64,000 bases of DNA, from positions 22,386 through 86,385 of the forward strand of contig CAZEBS010000007.1 in assembly GCA_964510635.1 (NCBI GenBank), in the 5' to 3' direction. The stretch comes from an uncultured Candidatus Bathyarchaeia archaeon (GTDB taxonomy: Archaea > Thermoproteota > Bathyarchaeia > Bathyarchaeales > Bathyarchaeaceae). The stretch's first letter is position 1. Each line of letters starts with the position of its first letter. The notes below the pieces were generated by a model. It saw nothing but the letters and a program-made list of their open reading frames with translations, was not told the origin of the DNA and searched no databases. Below, one piece after another: positions 56,224-63,774 of the stretch. The position numbers and the translations under genes were made by a program.

Positions 56224-56299
56224 TGGTAGCCCGGGGGAGATTCGAACTCCCGTCAGGGGCTCCAGAGGCCCCCATGATTGACCGCTACACCACCGGGCT
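56224..56299 (-). tRNA. tRNA-Gln (anticodon CUG), CCA encoded
   Basis: The minus strand reads AGCCCGG-UG-GUGUAGCGGUCAAUCAU-G-GGGGC-CUCUGGA-GCCCC-UGAC-GGGAG-UUCGAAU-CUCCC-CCGGGCU-A-CCA. It has a 7-bp acceptor stem with A1:U72, a 5-bp anticodon stem, anticodon CUG, and the T-loop UUCGAAU. Length is 76 nt. Confidence 0.85.
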
Positions 56300-58102: not shown

Positions 58103-58111
58103 CAATGTTAT
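58103..58111. repeat. Target-site duplication, left copy (CAATGTTAT)
   Basis: Identical 9-mer in direct orientation at 63766-63774. Each copy abuts the outer end of a terminal inverted repeat. Confidence 0.8.
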
Positions 58112-58135
58112 GATACTGTTAAGTTATTTGTGATG
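58112..58135. repeat. Left terminal inverted repeat GATACTGTTAAGTTATTTGTGATG
   Basis: A 24/24 match to the reverse complement of 63742-63765 (CATCACAAATAACTTAACAGTATC). Confidence 0.85.
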
Positions 58136-58236
58136 AACTAAAGTCTATTGAACCTGTTAACCATTGGGATTTTTTTATTGTGTGACCTTAAGCTTAAATT
58201 TGGTTAATGTAAATAGGACATAAAGGGTATTGTCTG

Positions 58237-58785
58237 TTGGAAGAGAAAGTTCCAGAGAAAGATGTTCTTTGGCGTTTGTATGACGTTGCTTTGAATTTAT
58301 ACAAGTACGTGCATTCAGATGTTTGGGTTGGGCAGAAATATTACACCACTTTGAACATTGGAATAATAAGCATAGCCATTGCGCTGTTAGGGATTCCCCA
58401 CATTCTAGAGGGACCTTATTGGGTCGTAATAATACTCTTTGCAATAGGTATGATAACATCTATATTTGGTTATTTTAGCATTAGGAAATTGCGAGAAGCT
58501 TTTCTGAGTAACATCGCATTTAAAACCATCGTAGAATACTTGTTAAAGGATGAACTCGAATTAAAGAAAAATGATGTATCAGAAAAGCATCAATTGACAC
58601 CATTTTATAGCCTTCCAGAAGAGGATGTTTCTAGTATTCTTAAGTGTCCTGACCTTTGGAAAAAACAAAACATTTTCAGACTTGGTGGTGTTAGTTGTTT
58701 CTTCCTTTTGCTTCAACTAATTTTTGTTATAGTTAACCTTTTTGGGATTTTATTGACTCTCTTGCTGTATTTTGGTTATGTTTGA
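58237..58785 (+). CDS. Hypothetical membrane protein (transposon passenger)
   Basis: 182 aa, TTG start, 3-4 TM (IGIISIAIALLGI, VVIILFAIGMITSIFGYF, and C-terminal VSCFFLLLQLIFVIVNLFGILLTLLLYF). No recognised family. Confidence 0.45.
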   Translation: MEEKVPEKDVLWRLYDVALNLYKYVHSDVWVGQKYYTTLNIGIISIAIALLGIPHILEGPYWVVIILFAIGMITSIFGYFSIRKLREAFLSNIAFKTIVEYLLKDELELKKNDVSEKHQLTPFYSLPEEDVSSILKCPDLWKKQNIFRLGGVSCFFLLLQLIFVIVNLFGILLTLLLYFGYV

Positions 58786-58843
58786 TTAGGTTACGCAAGC
58801 TTTTTGATGGACTAAACTGTCTATCAAACAAGTAACTATGCCT

Positions 58844-60556
58844 TTATTTTGGAACAAGAGCCCATGTTTTCATGGCTATTTTTGCTAGTTGATTTTGTCG
58901 TTCATTAATGTCTTTTGCATCCCACAATGTTTCGTGGTTTGTCATGTCATAGATGCCCTTTGTGATGAGAAGTGGGGATTTTTTAAATTCTACTCGTTTA
59001 GATTGGAAATTAGAATTACCAAAAGTTGAATTAACCTTTGTATTTAGCAATGTCATGTTTCCAATTCTTTTGTGATATGACTCGAAAGTTTCAACATCAA
59101 TATGTGACCAGTTGCTTCCTTTTTCTCGTGGTAAAATATGCTCCAGATTAAGAAAGCTAGTGTCTTCAGAAGGTACCAGTTCTGGCTCTTGGTCTTTCCG
59201 AAGTTGACGTTCCATCGCACGTAAATAATACCTTGCAAGACTGTGTCGAGATACTCTAGCAGTTTCAAATGCTAACTTAAACTCGCCATCTCTTGGAATA
59301 ATATTTGATAAAGCATTCAATAATTCGTTCGTGGTCTTAATTTCACCTAAATATACATCATGTGCTTTTTCTCCATAGGCATCTTCTAATGCACCACCTC
59401 GCATTCCACCCGCTATCAAGAACCTCACCGTCCAAGAAACAAAAGAACGAAACGCTTTTTCCAATTCTTTTGGTTCAAAATGTTGAGCAACAGCAAGCAT
59501 TAAGGGCTGTATTTGGCGTACTTTTAACTCTCTCATTATGTTTATAGCGGTTGGAATTTTTGTTGAAAGACCACTCCATCTTGGATGGGTTGGAGTTACT
59601 ATTGCAACATAAGTGTCGGCGTAATCAGAAATCTTTTCTAGAAAACTGAGTGTGTTGGTTTTACCCCGTACTTCTTTCTTTATTTTTTCGAAAATTTCCT
59701 TTTCTCTTGTTGGACCAAACAAGGTGATAGCTAAATGTCGTAAATACGTCATTACCATGTCTTCTGCCCATGCTGTTTCCAATATGTTTGTCATCTTAGA
59801 CCATTTTGATTGTGCCTCGTTCACTCGAGTACCCGCCTCGCTAAAAAGATAATTCTTCACCAAGTCTGCTTGAGACGTTTTCAGTCCTCTGTCGTTGAGC
59901 GTTTCAAACATCGTAAAAGCGCTTACTTCATCTGGAACTGTAAGAAGAATAATTGTTGCTTTGTTTTCAATGAATTTTGACCATGCAATTAGTGTGTGTT
60001 TTATGTTTTCATCATTCAGTCCACGTATTATGTCTTGAACCAATGTTTCTGCTTTTTGGGCAGCAATATTTATTCTTCTGTGAGATTCTTTTTTCTCTTC
60101 TATATTTTGCCTTTCAGGTCTATTAGGAAGTGCAATAATGCGATTTTTAAAATATTCATTATCATCCATGTTAAGAGTTAATTTTGGAACCACTGTCTCT
60201 TGTTCGAGGTCATATTCACAAAGAAATTGACTCTCAATAGATGTTTGGGCTCGTTCTTGATTTTTGTGAAAATAGTAATCTCTAATTGCAGCCAGCAAAA
60301 TAGTAGTAGTGGCTAATCTCTGTTGCCCATCAACTACAACAGGTATATCTTCAGTTCCTTTTGAAACAACAATTGTACCCAAAAAATAACTTGGCAAGTT
60401 ATTTGTTATAGCACTTCGAAAATCTTGGAATAATTCATCAATTTGTTTATCTCCCCAAGAATACTCACGTTGATTTAGTGGAATCTTAAGCTGTTGCGCT
60501 TTTAACAAAGCGCCAATGCCTTTAAATTCGAAAGGTGGAGGTTGCATAACGTGCAT
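58844..60556 (-). CDS. DUF262 plus DUF1524 protein (GmrSD-like type IV restriction / ParB-like NTPase plus His-Me nuclease)
   Basis: N-terminal IPLNQREYSWGDKQIDELFQDF and VVDGQQRLATTTILLAAI are the DUF262 motifs. C-terminal NLEHILPRE...IGNMTLL...N is the DUF1524 HNH-like motif. 570 aa. Confidence 0.8.
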   Translation of the reverse strand: MHVMQPPPFEFKGIGALLKAQQLKIPLNQREYSWGDKQIDELFQDFRSAITNNLPSYFLGTIVVSKGTEDIPVVVDGQQRLATTTILLAAIRDYYFHKNQERAQTSIESQFLCEYDLEQETVVPKLTLNMDDNEYFKNRIIALPNRPERQNIEEKKESHRRINIAAQKAETLVQDIIRGLNDENIKHTLIAWSKFIENKATIILLTVPDEVSAFTMFETLNDRGLKTSQADLVKNYLFSEAGTRVNEAQSKWSKMTNILETAWAEDMVMTYLRHLAITLFGPTREKEIFEKIKKEVRGKTNTLSFLEKISDYADTYVAIVTPTHPRWSGLSTKIPTAINIMRELKVRQIQPLMLAVAQHFEPKELEKAFRSFVSWTVRFLIAGGMRGGALEDAYGEKAHDVYLGEIKTTNELLNALSNIIPRDGEFKLAFETARVSRHSLARYYLRAMERQLRKDQEPELVPSEDTSFLNLEHILPREKGSNWSHIDVETFESYHKRIGNMTLLNTKVNSTFGNSNFQSKRVEFKKSPLLITKGIYDMTNHETLWDAKDINERQNQLAKIAMKTWALVPK

Positions 60557-60560
60557 TCAA

Positions 60561-60785
60561 TCATCCCATCTTTATTTTTTTAAAAAACTCTATTGGATGT
60601 CCAACGGCTTCCAAATCTTTAATGGCTGCTTGTCTTAGTCTTTGACGTGCCCATGTAGACAGGGGTGTTCCTAAAATTTTAGCTGCGTCTTGAAATGTTT
60701 GCTTTTCGTCACTGTCAAGTCTTATCAGTAGAGTTTCTATCTTTTTGTCTTCTGTCTTTTTTGTTGGTCTTCCTCGTCCAGCCAT
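60561..60785 (-). CDS. Ribbon-helix-helix protein (DUF1778/CopG-like antitoxin-type), upstream partner of the GmrSD-like gene
   Basis: GRPTKK...TLLIRLDSDEKQTFQDAAKILGTPLSTWARQRLRQAA follows the RHH pattern. A perfect SD GGAGGTGA lies 6 nt upstream. Its stop is 4 nt before the GmrSD-like start. Confidence 0.6.
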   Translation of the reverse strand: MAGRGRPTKKTEDKKIETLLIRLDSDEKQTFQDAAKILGTPLSTWARQRLRQAAIKDLEAVGHPIEFFKKIKMG

Positions 60786-61022
60786 TTCTTTTCACCTCCA
60801 AATATTTGTATATTTAACTAATATACTTTTTCTAACTCAAAAGTTTATTGTATAATTTTTAGGCATACAAAAAAGGGATTTTATCACTTTATTTTGATGT
60901 TACCCTTTATTTTGTGTTCCCATTCTTCTTGAGTGATTACACCTTTTTCTTCCAACAATTCAACGAGACTAGTAAGCATTGTATCTAACAAATCAATTTC
61001 AGATGCTAAATCACGTTTGATT

Positions 61023-61187
61023 TTATTCTTCACATTTACCACCTTTATTGAGATAACCTTTCTCAGATAACCAATTCATAATGATTGTGCGAAGTGTATC
61101 TGAGTACCCTTCACCAAGTGTACCTATAAGGTCTTTGTCTATGAGGTCAACGATATTGGCTGGTAAGGCTACGAGTATTTTTCTCAT
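61023..61187 (-). CDS. CopG-type ribbon-helix-helix protein (54 aa), translationally coupled to the transposase
   Basis: Not in the track. My translation is MRKILVALPANIVDLIDKDLIGTLGEGYSDTLRTIIMNWLSEKGYLNKGGKCEE. Its ATG (61187-61185) overlaps the transposase TGA (61186-61184) as ATGA. Confidence 0.5.
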   Translation of the reverse strand: MRKILVALPANIVDLIDKDLIGTLGEGYSDTLRTIIMNWLSEKGYLNKGGKCEE

Positions 61188-62092
61188 TTTGCTATCACCA
61201 CCATCTTGTTCTTTTCTTTGTTATTATTTTGGTTTGTGACTCTAGCCAATAGCTCTGCTTCATATTTTGTGGCTTCCTCAATCAACCCCTTCCAGTTGTC
61301 AGGTGCGTTTGTTCTTGCAGCTTGAGCAGGAGTTTTTCCAATGCTTTGATGTTCTCTTACGAAGTTGTAGTGAACTGTGTATCCTTCTAGTATTGCGTTT
61401 GTGGATTCAAAGCCTTTTAGTCCTCTCATGGGCTTTGTTCGGTCTTTGAGTGTACCGTGTAGTCGTTCTACGATGTTGTTTGTTTCTCTTGTTCTGATTC
61501 CTACTCTTTGAACTAGTTCTACTTTGTCGGCTTTATATCTGGAATAGAAAACTTTGTTGAAGGCTCTTTGGTATGAATTGCATCCATCAACGAAAACTGC
61601 TCTAAGTTTTACTTTGCTTTGGTCTAGTCCTTTTTGGAAGATTGCGATTGTGTCTTTTAGAGTTCTAGTGTTTGAGAGGTGTGAGCTTACTATGAATTTG
61701 GTGTCTTCGTCGATCATTTCCCAGAACCATACATTGCGTCCTTCGCAACGGACAACTGTTTCGTCTTCATGCCATAGACCCGAAAGCTGAGGAACTAATG
61801 TGTTAACGTATTCCTTGACTAGAATTGAGTATTTCTTTATCCAGTCCAGAATTGTTACTTGGCTCACGGTTTTTCCGAATATCTGCTTTAGGTTTCTTTG
61901 GGTTTTGCGGAGAGATAAACCGTCAAAGTATAGATTAAGTGCTGTTACTATGATGTGTTTGTCAGTTCTCATTTTGGCGAATTTTCCGTTCATGTAGAAG
62001 CGTTTCTTACATACTTTGCATCTGTAGAGTTGTTTGCCTTTGACTTTGCCGTCTTTCACGAGTTTTTTGGAGCCACAATATTTGCATTGCAT
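61184..62092 (-). CDS. DDE transposase with N-terminal zinc ribbon and HTH (IS1/IS6-like by motif)
   Basis: MQCKYCGSKKLVKDGKVKGKQLYRCKVCKKRF (CxxC...CxxC), the HTH region LSLRKTQRNLKQIFGKTVSQVTILDWIKKY, and a DDE core WHEDETVV...FVDGCNSY...NNIVERLHGTLKDRTKPMRGLKGF. I start at the ATG at 62092. The track start at 62152 adds 20 unlikely residues. Confidence 0.8.
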   Translation of the reverse strand: MQCKYCGSKKLVKDGKVKGKQLYRCKVCKKRFYMNGKFAKMRTDKHIIVTALNLYFDGLSLRKTQRNLKQIFGKTVSQVTILDWIKKYSILVKEYVNTLVPQLSGLWHEDETVVRCEGRNVWFWEMIDEDTKFIVSSHLSNTRTLKDTIAIFQKGLDQSKVKLRAVFVDGCNSYQRAFNKVFYSRYKADKVELVQRVGIRTRETNNIVERLHGTLKDRTKPMRGLKGFESTNAILEGYTVHYNFVREHQSIGKTPAQAARTNAPDNWKGLIEEATKYEAELLARVTNQNNNKEKNKMVVIAK

Positions 62093-62209
62093 TGGTATCT
62101 CACAGCTATACTGTAAGTAATATGTGGTATATATAGCTTGTGGGTATACCACAAGACATCTAGAAACATGATAAAATAGTTAAAGCAATAAACAGAAACA
62201 GATAGTAGT

Positions 62210-63739
62210 ATGACATCTCAAAGCTACTTTCAACCCAACACTATCTACTGTGGCGATTGTCTTGAAGTAATGACAAACCACATTCCTTCCAACATCATCG
62301 ATTTAATCTATGTAGACCCACCATTTGGAAGCGGAGAAGAATATGAAATTGTATTCAAAGACGGTGTTGAAGTACGCCATTTTACAGACCGATGGATTGG
62401 TGGAAAAGAGGGATATATTAATTGGATAAAACCCCGCATAAGAGACATTCATAGAGTTCTAAAAGATACTGGTTCATTCTATCTCCATTGCGATTATCAT
62501 TTAAATGCTTACTTACGGATTGCTTGTGATGAAATTTTTGGTGAAGCAAATTTCAATAATGAAATAATATGGAAAAGAAAAGATGCGCAAAGTTCTGTTA
62601 AGAAATACGGTATCAATAATGATACAATCCTTTTCTATTCAAAAACAAAGGATTTTACATTCAACAAACTTTACACGCCTCTAAGCAAAAAGACCCAAGA
62701 CACATGGTATAAAAAAACTGAAGTGGCAACCAAAGATTTAGTGAATAAAAGAGGAAAAAAAATTCCAAAAGGTACAGTTAGACGATATAATTTAGGTGAT
62801 GTCTCAGCTTCTGGTTCTAGAGTAGGAACACGAGCACATTACAAGTGGAAAGGGAAATTTCCCCGAAATGGGTCGCATTGGCGATATGTAAAAGAAAAAA
62901 TGGAAGAACTTGAGAAAGAAGGTCGTCTTTATCATTCAAAATCTAATACACCATATGAAAAACGATATTTGGATGAGTCTAAAGGAACCACTCTACAGAC
63001 TATATGGACTGACATTCCAATGTTGAGAGGAATATTCAAACATACAAAGAAATCTGAATATCTAGGATACCCAACTCAAAAACCCGTTACGTTGCTTGAA
63101 AGAATAATTGAAGCTTCTAGCAATGAAGGTGATATTGTTCTTGACCCAATGTGTGGATGTGGTACTGCCGTTGTTGCTGCTCAAAATTTAGGTAGAAATT
63201 GGATAGGTATTGACATTAGTCCTACGGCTTGTAAGATTATGGTTAAACGATTGAGAAGCAAAAATGTGCAAATAGGTATTGACGATATAGTTGATTTGCC
63301 AAGACGGATTGATGCTATTAAAAAAATGGTGAATTTAGACCCGATTGAATTTCAAAATTGGGTTTGTGAAAGACTTGGTGCTGTTTCAACAACAAGAAGG
63401 GGAAGAAAACCTAAAGCAGATGGCAATGTTGATGGATGGATTATGAGCAGTATTCCAATACAAGTTAAAGGTTCGGAAAGTATTGGATACTCAGAAATTG
63501 AACGGTTTGAAAAAACAGTTGAAAAACGTAAATTGAAGAACGGTTTGTTTGTGGCGTTCTCTTTCAGCAAGCTAGCATATGAAGAAGCAATGCGAGCAAG
63601 AAACGAGGATGGAATTGATATTGACTTAATAGAGTTGGAAGAACGCCTTACTCCAAATCCTAAATTTTCAGGGCATCCCGAATATCACACGGTTCTTACA
63701 TCTAAAATGACAAAAAGAGTGTGGGGAGAAAAAACCTAA
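62210..63739 (+). CDS. Beta-class N6A/N4C DNA methyltransferase fused to a C-terminal Mrr-like (PD-(D/E)xK) domain
   Basis: Motif IV IYVDPPFG lies near the N-terminus and motif I VLDPMCGCGT lies later, which is the beta-class order (N6_N4_Mtase). The C-terminal FQNWVCERLGA...ADGNVDGWI...IQVKGS..IGYSEIERF matches the Mrr_cat pattern (D-G-x-D-G ... Q-x-K). The stop lies 2 nt before the right TIR. Confidence 0.8.
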   Translation: MTSQSYFQPNTIYCGDCLEVMTNHIPSNIIDLIYVDPPFGSGEEYEIVFKDGVEVRHFTDRWIGGKEGYINWIKPRIRDIHRVLKDTGSFYLHCDYHLNAYLRIACDEIFGEANFNNEIIWKRKDAQSSVKKYGINNDTILFYSKTKDFTFNKLYTPLSKKTQDTWYKKTEVATKDLVNKRGKKIPKGTVRRYNLGDVSASGSRVGTRAHYKWKGKFPRNGSHWRYVKEKMEELEKEGRLYHSKSNTPYEKRYLDESKGTTLQTIWTDIPMLRGIFKHTKKSEYLGYPTQKPVTLLERIIEASSNEGDIVLDPMCGCGTAVVAAQNLGRNWIGIDISPTACKIMVKRLRSKNVQIGIDDIVDLPRRIDAIKKMVNLDPIEFQNWVCERLGAVSTTRRGRKPKADGNVDGWIMSSIPIQVKGSESIGYSEIERFEKTVEKRKLKNGLFVAFSFSKLAYEEAMRARNEDGIDIDLIELEERLTPNPKFSGHPEYHTVLTSKMTKRVWGEKT

Positions 63740-63741
63740 TC

Positions 63742-63765
63742 CATCACAAATAACTTAACAGTATC
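63742..63765. repeat. Right terminal inverted repeat CATCACAAATAACTTAACAGTATC
   Basis: Exact reverse complement of 58112-58135. Confidence 0.85.
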
Positions 63766-63774
63766 CAATGTTAT
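63766..63774. repeat. Target-site duplication, right copy (CAATGTTAT)
   Basis: Identical to 58103-58111, in direct orientation, abutting the right TIR. Confidence 0.8.

Follow-up and report, generated by a model that had tools for sequence, protein, structure and literature searches.

A putative ribbon-helix-helix autorepressor coupled to a transposon-borne HEC-06-type restriction nuclease in archaea and bacteria

The window analysed here, a 64-kb stretch of contig CAZEBS010000007.1 from an uncultured Candidatus Bathyarchaeia archaeon, contains a transposon in which a gene for a 74-amino-acid (aa) ribbon-helix-helix (RHH) protein directly precedes a gene for a 570-aa GmrSD-like nuclease. Comparison with related loci supports the view that these two genes form one conserved, translationally coupled operon, and the RHH protein is most plausibly the autorepressor, or controller, of this operon and of the mobile type IV restriction nuclease that it encodes, a reading to which we assign a probability of roughly 0.6. 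A Bathyarchaeia-type host is indicated also by its TFB and FtsZ proteins, which belong to clusters at 90% identity with named members from Candidatus Bathyarchaeota or Bathyarchaeum. The comparison loci, derived from genomes or metagenomes, carry labels of the form L006. A first-pass annotation of this DNA had reported three open reading frames (ORFs), those of the RHH protein, the nuclease and a 182-aa membrane protein, together with a Shine-Dalgarno sequence, an AT-rich upstream region and a 4-nt gap, and all of them were found in the sequence. The Shine-Dalgarno sequence stands 6 nt 5' of the RHH ATG (60799-60792) in AT-rich surroundings, and 4 nt separate the RHH stop codon from the ATG of the nuclease gene. 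The features of the operon are the following:

58844 to 60556, minus strand: HEC-06-type GmrSD-like type IV nuclease, 570 aa (DUF262 NTPase plus DUF1524 HNH), assigned with Pfam and PADLOC
60561 to 60785, minus strand: 74-aa RHH protein, proposed operon autorepressor, assigned from homologues, a structure model, Foldseek and its pairing with the nuclease
60792 to 60799, minus strand: Shine-Dalgarno sequence GGAGGTGA of the RHH gene, read from the sequence
60808 to 60826, minus strand: predicted proximal operator O2, GTATAttagttaaaTATAC, a perfect palindrome at -41 to -23 from the RHH ATG
60850 to 60868, minus strand: predicted distal operator O1, GTATGcctaaaaatTATAC, with one mismatch, 42 nt upstream of O2 and overlapping the TATA-like TAAAAATTATA

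At the level of the nuclease, the earlier call of a GmrSD-like protein with DUF262 and DUF1524 domains holds. Pfam recognises both GmrSD_N (PF03235, 4.6e-31) and GmrSD_C (PF07510, 6.4e-24), and the PADLOC HEC-06 model (PDLC04157) matches residues 9-566 of the 570-aa protein at 3.3e-175, a full-length match to a family whose founding member has about 560 aa; SspE models reach 1e-19 at best and cover the protein only partially. HEC-06 (Hma-embedded candidate 06) was described by Payne et al. as a single Escherichia coli gene inside an Hma system and was tested alone, and its resistance to phage is abolished by mutation of Q79, R80, E471 or H472 (10.1101/2024.01.29.577857). These essential positions match the DGQQR motif at residues 76-80 and the E-H pair at 472-473 of the window nuclease, and in an alignment of 31 homologues D76, G77, Q78, Q79, R80, E472 and H473 are all invariant, as are N500 and N509. 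A Bacteroides homologue with 22% identity, HEC-06Bact, blocks T4 when expressed from an inducible promoter, relative to T4-GT7, the control phage used to reveal modification-dependent defence, and its authors class it as a modification-dependent nuclease (PMC12366544). HEC-06 homologues thus protect E. coli as single genes, expression from an inducible promoter included (10.1101/2024.01.29.577857; PMC12366544), and the family is among the commoner of the recently validated single-gene defences. Because of the full-length HEC-06 match and the invariance of the essential residues, the window nuclease is, judged from its sequence, an intact member of a known and validated defence family, and by homology it is probably modification-dependent as well. 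Its setting differs from that of HEC-06, which was described as a lone gene in Hma or type I restriction-modification loci: the window gene, like about 40% of the sampled family loci, is the second gene of an operon led by an RHH gene with predicted operators of its own, and it is carried by a transposon.

The pairing of the two genes was evaluated in other genomes. A search with a GmrSD profile yielded 80 loci from species-representative genomes, and in 33 of these HEC-06 loci an RHH homologue lies directly upstream on the same strand; the RHH-bearing loci come from Acidobacteriota, Planctomycetota, Alphaproteobacteria, Chloroflexota, Nitrospirota, Actinomycetota, Bacteroidota and Bathyarchaeota. 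The remaining 47 loci show neither an RHH gene nor any recurring substitute upstream of the nuclease. A second search, based on the RHH protein, yielded 48 metagenome loci, most of them with a GmrSD gene directly downstream. In 65 of 66 pairs the gap between the genes falls between -20 and +12 nt, and the commonest values, -4, -8 and -1, are the signature of translational coupling. The pairing proposed in the first pass is consequently a recurrent one, and the tight gaps favour the co-transcription assumed there. The two proteins also diverge in parallel to some extent, since pairwise distances of RHH and GmrSD proteins correlate with a Mantel r of 0.457, the highest of 999 permutations being 0.152. 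RHH presence can be mapped on a neighbour-joining tree of 75 nucleases with 15 changes, whereas shuffled labels require 23.6 on average and never fewer than 17; the RHH gene is therefore inherited along with the nuclease and yet often gained or lost. The archaeal nucleases form a clade nested among RHH-bearing bacterial sequences on this tree, in agreement with the published inference that archaeal HEC-06 came from bacteria.

As for the product of the first gene, its matches in hidden Markov model (HMM) searches are to RHH families only, all below threshold (DUF6290, 1.6e-4; RelB, 1.3e-3; NikA-like, 0.019; TacA1/DUF1778, 0.083), and a profile search of the sequences in the PDB returned AtaR at an E-value of 0.82. 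Close homologues number 18, at 59-86% identity, and every one of them has the N-terminal motif GRGRP, one predicted strand, a pair of helices and, as a conserved tail, VGHPIxxFKKxxW. In the AlphaFold2 (AF2) model, which has a predicted local distance difference test (pLDDT) score of 63.6, helices span residues 25-38, 42-61 and 66-70, the first of them preceded by ETLLIRL. The best Foldseek matches of this model are all RHH proteins, namely CopA_SO, TacA1, AtaR, KacA, Arc, CopG and AmrZ, with target-normalised template-modelling (TM) scores of up to 0.84 and root-mean-square deviations of about 1.1-1.3 Å at an E-value of about 0.4. On the basis of these matches we accept an RHH fold for the 74-aa protein, as predicted from sequence and model, and place it outside any curated family, DUF1778 included. 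The earlier description of the protein as RHH/DUF1778-like is thus retained in its first half and dropped in its second, given that TacA1/DUF1778 (PF08681) scores 13.3 bits against a cut-off of 21. The wider family is large: an HMMER scan of 1.84 billion representatives gave 929 relatives at E <= 1e-3, of which 176 reach E <= 1e-10, counted as representatives of clusters at 50% identity (about 930), and the best 150 listed are nearly all small proteins, mostly of 60-150 aa.

The evidence that bears most directly on the role of the RHH protein lies in the promoter. Palindromes were seen to recur when the DNA upstream of RHH genes was inspected; a 19-bp pattern, GTAnn-N9-nnTAC, was searched there, and 54 non-redundant upstream regions of RHH-bearing operons were compared with 47 upstream regions of RHH-less nuclease genes. 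Perfect copies of the pattern occur in 23 of the 54 RHH-bearing regions against 2 of the 47 RHH-less ones, with a mean of 0.03 sites per region in shuffled sequences; if one mismatch is allowed, the numbers are 33/54 against 2/47, and shuffled sequences then average 2.85 loci with a site and never exceed 7. The spacer measures exactly 9 nt in 25 of 28 perfect sites, and no comparable enrichment was obtained with spacers of 5-8 or 10-13 nt. Where a locus has at least two sites, 11 of the 13 intervals between neighbouring sites measure 42 +/- 1 nt. Conservation extends to flanking positions that the search left free: of 45 sites, 37 have T at -1 and 40 have A at +19, so that the consensus lengthens to ATTGTAY-N-RTACAAT. 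A+T makes up 0.69 of the 9-nt spacer and 0.59 of the DNA around it, and the inner bases of the half-sites covary across the arms (GTACC/GGTAC, GTACG/CGTAC, GTATA/TATAC). The window itself contains three matches to the pattern in 64 kb, two of which lie upstream of the RHH gene, at -41 (perfect) and -83 (one mismatch) from its ATG, and the proximal site is conserved in L006, L008, L089, L136 and L138. The third match (62131-62149) was considered as an RHH site acting on the transposase and rejected, as it is not conserved when the operator definition is applied and belongs to a different conserved palindrome of the transposase promoter. Taken together, the layout of the palindromes points to the arrangement expected of an autorepressor, and appears tied to the presence of the RHH gene rather than to that of the nuclease gene. 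Because the palindrome is limited to RHH-bearing promoters, the RHH protein is read as a probable autorepressor of the operon and not as an antitoxin.

In many bacterial elements, according to our reading, the GTACAAT right arm of the proximal site coincides with the -10 hexamer and lies 17 nt after a TTGAC -35 element. In L013, L015, L083, L092, L096, L102 and L108 only about 6 nt lie between the end of this TACAAT and the RHH start codon, with no Shine-Dalgarno sequence, which suggests that the RHH mRNA of these bacterial elements is leaderless; the archaeal RHH copies have the strong GGAGGTGA in place of this arrangement. A different palindrome was observed in L057, L061, L077, L110, L128 and L131, mostly alphaproteobacterial, in which no N9 form occurs and a spacerless TGTGGCCACA or TGTAGCTACA is followed by GGTACACAAGTC. 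This spacerless palindrome may be a diverged form of the operator that the search criterion missed.

The operon of the window is carried by a transposon of 5,654 bp (58112-63765) with 29-nt terminal inverted repeats (TIRs), a 9-bp target-site duplication (TSD) and seven genes inside, and the "same mobile element" invoked in the first-pass annotation is thereby delimited. The 24-nt core of the TIR occurs exactly twice in the window, with 0 occurrences expected, and at the left end of the element the G+C content drops from about 0.45 to about 0.35. Besides the operon, the element consists of:

58103 to 58111, no strand: left TSD copy CAATGTTAT, 9 bp, identical to 63766-63774 and directly outside the TIRs
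58112 to 58140, plus strand: left TIR GATACTGTTAAGTTATTTGTGATGAACTA, a 29-nt arm 93% complementary to 63737-63765
58237 to 58785, plus strand: 182-aa membrane ORF, variable cargo with two homologues, outside the RHH-nuclease module
60884 to 61042, minus strand: 52-aa ORF of the transposase module, kept with the transposase in L002-5, L008, L136, L138 and L140
61023 to 61187, minus strand: 54-aa ORF of the transposase module, resembling RHH proteins in its sequence pattern alone, also kept with the transposase
61184 to 62152, minus strand: IS6-family DDE transposase, with a likely true start at 62092 that gives 302 aa, as in the L136 and L140 homologues
62210 to 63739, plus strand: N6/N4 DNA methyltransferase with a C-terminal Mrr_cat domain, variable cargo, assigned with Pfam
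63737 to 63765, minus strand: right TIR, the inverted repeat of the left arm
63766 to 63774, no strand: right TSD copy CAATGTTAT, 9 bp, a direct repeat of the left copy

A TIR of the form GATACTGTTAAGT(T/G)ATTTGTG bounds four further complete elements of Bathyarchaeia type, each with a different perfect 9-bp duplication:

L008 element: 5,391 bp, TSD CTCTTAGAG, transposase present
L136 element: 5,979 bp, TSD GGTGATGGC, transposase present
L140 element: 4,479 bp, TSD TGTGTATGC, transposase present
L006 element (L006:7333-10030): 2,698 bp, TSD GTTTGGACA, transposase absent

The RHH-GmrSD pair is present in all five complete elements, the window included, and is thus their constant cargo, whereas the rest of the cargo varies. 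The methyltransferase-Mrr fusion (N6_N4_Mtase, 3.1e-49; Mrr_cat, 6.3e-6; Pfam), which in the window shares a transposon with the putative modification-dependent nuclease, is found also in L002/L003 and L138 and is absent from L006, L136 and L140. It is replaced in L136 (L136:2850-5292, Bathyarchaeota) by a UPF0175/DUF3368 pair, antitoxin-like and PIN-like, together with a 401-aa ORF, and the other cargo of L140 is an ORF call annotated as DUF3800. One transposon end, evidently, swaps its cargo freely, as far as these sequences allow us to see. The L006 element contains only a 144-aa hydrophobic ORF and the RHH-GmrSD pair, and has the form of a non-autonomous mobile insertion cassette that presumably relies on transposase supplied in trans.

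The transposase of the archaeal elements scores 141 bits against a cut-off of 125 with the NCBIfam model transpos_IS6 (NF033587) and matches Pfam DDE_Tnp_IS240 (PF13610) at 7.8e-21. Two small ORFs, of about 55 and 50 aa, invariably come after its gene, and the whole block occurs in either orientation with respect to the cassette. In the window the start of the 54-aa ORF overlaps the transposase stop codon and the two small ORFs overlap each other (60884-61187); the 54-aa protein has no Pfam match and looks RHH-like by eye. The transposase promoter contains conserved palindromes of its own, CTTGTGGTATACCACAAG and GGTATCTTATAGTATACC as well as GGTAT-N8-ATACC, which are distinct from the RHH operator and lie at 62100-62160 in the window, at about 5360-5450 in L136, at about 4300-4400 in L008 and at 6609-6700 in L140. 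The 54-aa RHH-like protein, whose ORF comes directly after the transposase gene, is a candidate to bind at these palindromes. An empty insertion site was sought by means of the flanking SUI1 protein, and only the same contig was matched.

Members of the IS6 family have 8-bp duplications, GG tips and a cTGTt motif, and a 2021 review of the family, from which passenger-carrying elements are almost unknown, gives a single passenger-carrying member, ISDsp3 (PMC7986276). The archaeal elements resemble this family in their transposase, above the NCBIfam cut-off, and in the cTGTt motif of their TIR. Unlike its members, all five complete elements have a 9-bp duplication and the TIR tip is GA; unlike typical IS6 elements, which encode a transposase only, the archaeal elements measure 4.5-6 kb, carry 4 to 6 passenger genes and always encode the two small ORFs along with the transposase. 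They are atypical for IS6 in view of the 9-bp duplication, the GA tip and the passengers, when compared with the review.

In bacteria, the same cassette is found in elements of a different type. Of the 49 RHH-bearing pairs whose upstream sequence is long enough, 27 have a divergent gene of one family as their immediate upstream neighbour; it exceeds the Pfam DDE_Tnp_IS1 threshold, and plasmid records annotate it as "IS1 family transposase". Among genome-derived loci, 21 of the 32 with an RHH gene have this transposase upstream and 11 do not, against 0 and 40, respectively, of the 40 RHH-less loci. TIRs of the GGTAGTG type, identical at 16-20 of 20 positions, bracket 19 pairs, with perfect 8-bp duplications in 18 of these 19; 17 of the duplications are distinct sequences, L094 and L095 being copies of one element. 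These bacterial elements measure 3.16-5.35 kb. Their resemblance to the IS1 family lies in the transposase, in the GGTAGTG start of the TIR and in the 8-bp duplications, and they differ from IS1 and from transporter insertion sequences (tIS) in that the carriers reach 3.2-5.4 kb and have the RHH-nuclease operon in divergent orientation to the transposase gene. Between archaeal and bacterial transposases the identity is just 25% across 169 residues, and therefore the same cassette is carried by two transposase lineages. The idea that RHH might be a universal backbone gene of IS1-like elements was discarded, as plasmid elements with the same transposase family have other divergent cargo and no RHH gene.

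A sister subfamily of the RHH protein, recognised by its tail (R/H)P(V/I)AFL, occurs with no nuclease partner in L107:6001-7327 and L109:1277-3494, and also in L105, L115, L116, L119, L121 and L129. Downstream of the sister RHH gene comes a basic, conserved ORF (about 50 aa; MIKPKYPKRADLSQLARxIVEHATG...), after which a gene for a membrane protein of 208-305 aa stands in L107, L109, L115, L119 and L121 at least. This set is enclosed together with an IS1-like transposase by IS1-type TIRs in L109, and in L107 the right TIR comes directly after the membrane gene; the sister set may represent a different transposon-borne module. Two IS1-type TIRs in opposite orientation lie only 8 bp apart at L107:7321-7342, where two elements of the family abut or nest.

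The model that we favour for the operon is as follows. RHH dimers would bind two 19-bp palindromes (GTATR-N9-TATAC) over the promoter of their own operon, the 42-bp spacing placing both sites on the same face of the helix. Bound RHH would then repress the transcription of both the RHH and the nuclease genes, and the tight translational coupling would fix the ratio of regulator to nuclease. The nuclease, once produced, would cut invading DNA with hypermodified bases, as in type IV restriction, and a nuclease gene arriving by transposon in a new host would bring along its own control of dosage or establishment. We infer the binding to the palindromes and the resulting repression from the arrangement of the promoters. 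Several observations weigh against this autorepressor model. The pLDDT of the AF2 model is low and the Foldseek E-value is about 0.4, the domain being small, and no curated family is matched by the RHH protein above threshold. Under the criterion used, 21 of the 54 RHH-bearing promoters have no site, and several alphaproteobacterial promoters show a palindrome with a different spacing, such as TGTGGCCACA. The conserved VGHPIxxF tail has no role in the model and could be a protein-contact motif. Moreover, the bacterial operators occupy DNA that the operon has in common with the divergent transposase gene, and RHH may therefore regulate transposition as much as it does the nuclease.

The conserved tail also underlies an alternative in which the pair resembles a type II toxin-antitoxin system. 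The RHH protein would repress the operon and, in addition, neutralise the nuclease through its C-terminal tail; being labile, it would be lost in the course of infection or after loss of the transposon, and the freed nuclease would cause abortive infection or addiction. This arrangement, put forward in the first pass as toxin-antitoxin-like autoregulation, agrees with the small upstream gene that overlaps a larger one, with the weak matches to the antitoxin families RelB, TacA1 and DUF6290, with antitoxin RHH domains as the nearest structural matches, and with the confinement of the RHH gene to nuclease genes of the mobile kind, for which addiction would be an advantage. Nevertheless, 47 of the 80 family loci have neither RHH nor a replacement, with about 15 changes of presence on the 75-taxon tree, and HEC-06 and its Bacteroides homologue were expressed alone in E. 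coli, where they acted only on phages with modified DNA. The sister subfamily, moreover, keeps a comparable tail, (R/H)P(V/I)AFL, without a nuclease partner. Antitoxins usually evolve faster than their cognate toxins, and in the archaeal clade the RHH proteins are 69-86% identical, compared with 54-65% for the nucleases. An antitoxin role is therefore unlikely in our view; the transcriptional autoregulation in the earlier proposal gains from the double palindrome, and its toxic, abortive part is undermined by the RHH-less loci and by the defence that homologues provide as single genes.

A second alternative regards the RHH protein mainly as a regulator of the transposon that represses the divergent transposase promoter, with the nuclease as a passenger. 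The association of the IS1-like transposase with RHH-bearing loci (21/32) and its absence from RHH-less ones (0/40) speak in its favour, as do the position of the bacterial operators, within the 50-150 nt that separate the RHH gene from the divergent transposase gene, and the occurrence of the sister RHH subfamily in IS1-like elements with a different cargo (L109, L107). In the window and in L003, L008 and L136, however, the transposase gene is co-directional and has a separate promoter about 1.3 kb away, and the promoter of the archaeal transposase has its own palindromes and no site of the RHH type. The cassette retains RHH and operators across the change from IS1-like to IS6-like transposases, in either orientation, and even in the transposase-less L006, while other plasmid IS1-like elements with the same transposase family manage without RHH. 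This explanation fits the bacterial geometry and not the archaeal elements, and we hold it to be improbable overall. The caveat raised in the first pass, that the RHH protein might be a transposon factor unrelated to the nuclease, has some relevance, as RHH occurs only with the transposon-borne form of the nuclease; it stays joined to the nuclease, however, across two transposase families.

Between this alternative and the autorepressor model stands the possibility that the RHH protein is a shared switch for defence and mobility, which rests on the bacterial IS1-type operators lying between divergent promoters and for which we see only a small chance. If it were true, derepression, whether on entry into a naive cell or upon infection, would fire nuclease and transposition together; an insertion sequence family present in both domains would have made its own dissemination depend on a type IV restriction gene; and the nuclease might benefit the element, by acting on competing modified mobile DNA, as much as it does the host.

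The 182-aa ORF, which is convergent with the nuclease gene and faces its 3' end, is hydrophobic by eye at residues of about 37-54, 60-80 and 150-180. The small convergent membrane protein noted in the first pass is thus present, and its sole family match, to 8xMP (PF24838), falls below threshold with 20.6 bits against a cut-off of 30 over residues 13-101; the homologue P0140 shows an equally weak 8xMP match. Only two homologues, with 64% and 48% identity, were found among 5.8 billion proteins searched, none in the 134 related loci, and a PDB search returned no relative; a literature search on 8xMP gave nothing useful. The homologue with 64% identity (L142:740-1108) adjoins and converges on an unrelated membrane ORF that looks broadly alike, with no GmrSD gene, and the DNA similarity between the window and L142 begins about 50 bp upstream of the membrane ORF; membrane genes of the L142 kind may occur as pairs elsewhere. 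In the four other complete archaeal elements only about 50-190 nt lie between the end of the nuclease gene and the right TIR, so that a membrane ORF between nuclease and TIR is found in the window element alone among the five. The membrane ORF is probably a real gene and an independent cargo. A three-part system, in which RHH and nuclease would work with the membrane protein as sensor or effector, can appeal to the adjacency of the gene, the shared transposon and the faint resemblance to 8xMP, but it is very improbable considering the two homologues, their absence from the 134 related loci, the lack of room for a 182-aa gene before the right TIR in four elements and the unrelated neighbour of the closest homologue, which does not stand beside a GmrSD gene. 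Even when this membrane-partner idea is pooled with roles that were not considered, the sum is distinctly less probable than any one of the other alternatives.

With regard to systems already described, the closest parallel to the autorepressor model is provided by the C proteins (C.PvuII, C.AhdI), helix-turn-helix controllers of mobile type II restriction-modification systems that time the nuclease relative to its partner methylase. As in those systems, a small gene for a DNA-binding protein lies upstream of the nuclease gene, would be co-transcribed with it, moves horizontally and has two palindromic sites in its own promoter. Unlike the C proteins, of the Xre type, the protein described here has a predicted RHH fold, which makes it an analogue and not a member of that group, and a type IV enzyme has no partner methylase against which it would need to be timed. 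The likeness to RHH antitoxins (TacA/AtaR/KacA, CopA_SO, RelB) comprises the predicted N-terminal RHH fold, the upstream overlapping gene and the predicted palindromic operators; in contrast to them, curated thresholds are not reached and the partner is a 570-aa restriction enzyme whose family exists and works without RHH. The nuclease family has been described before, as have regulators of defence systems in general and insertion sequences with passenger genes. Our literature search found no description of the RHH partner, of its operator, or of HEC-06 as a dedicated transposon cargo in both domains, and nothing relevant on GmrSD as a passenger of insertion sequences or on ISMhu11, of a large-element subgroup of IS1.

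The significance of these observations is that around 40% of the sampled loci of the HEC-06 family seem to be two-gene operons led by an uncharacterised RHH family, for which a well-defined and directly testable candidate operator is at hand in the form of a 25-bp palindrome that occurs twice, 42 bp apart. In its RHH-bearing form the nuclease gene travels as a dedicated cargo of transposons of the IS1 and IS6 types, with clean TIRs and duplications at 23 independent sites, and these transposons offer a concrete vehicle for the patchy spread of type IV restriction, including the hop from bacteria to archaea. If the autorepressor model is correct, it would add a class of regulators beside the C proteins and the WYL-domain BrxR/CapW family.

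Scans for sigma-70 promoters and terminators gave nothing informative, as expected for an archaeal host. Outside the transposon, a tRNA-Gln(CTG) gene lies on the minus strand at 56224-56299, about 1.8 kb from the transposon, and is not its insertion site.

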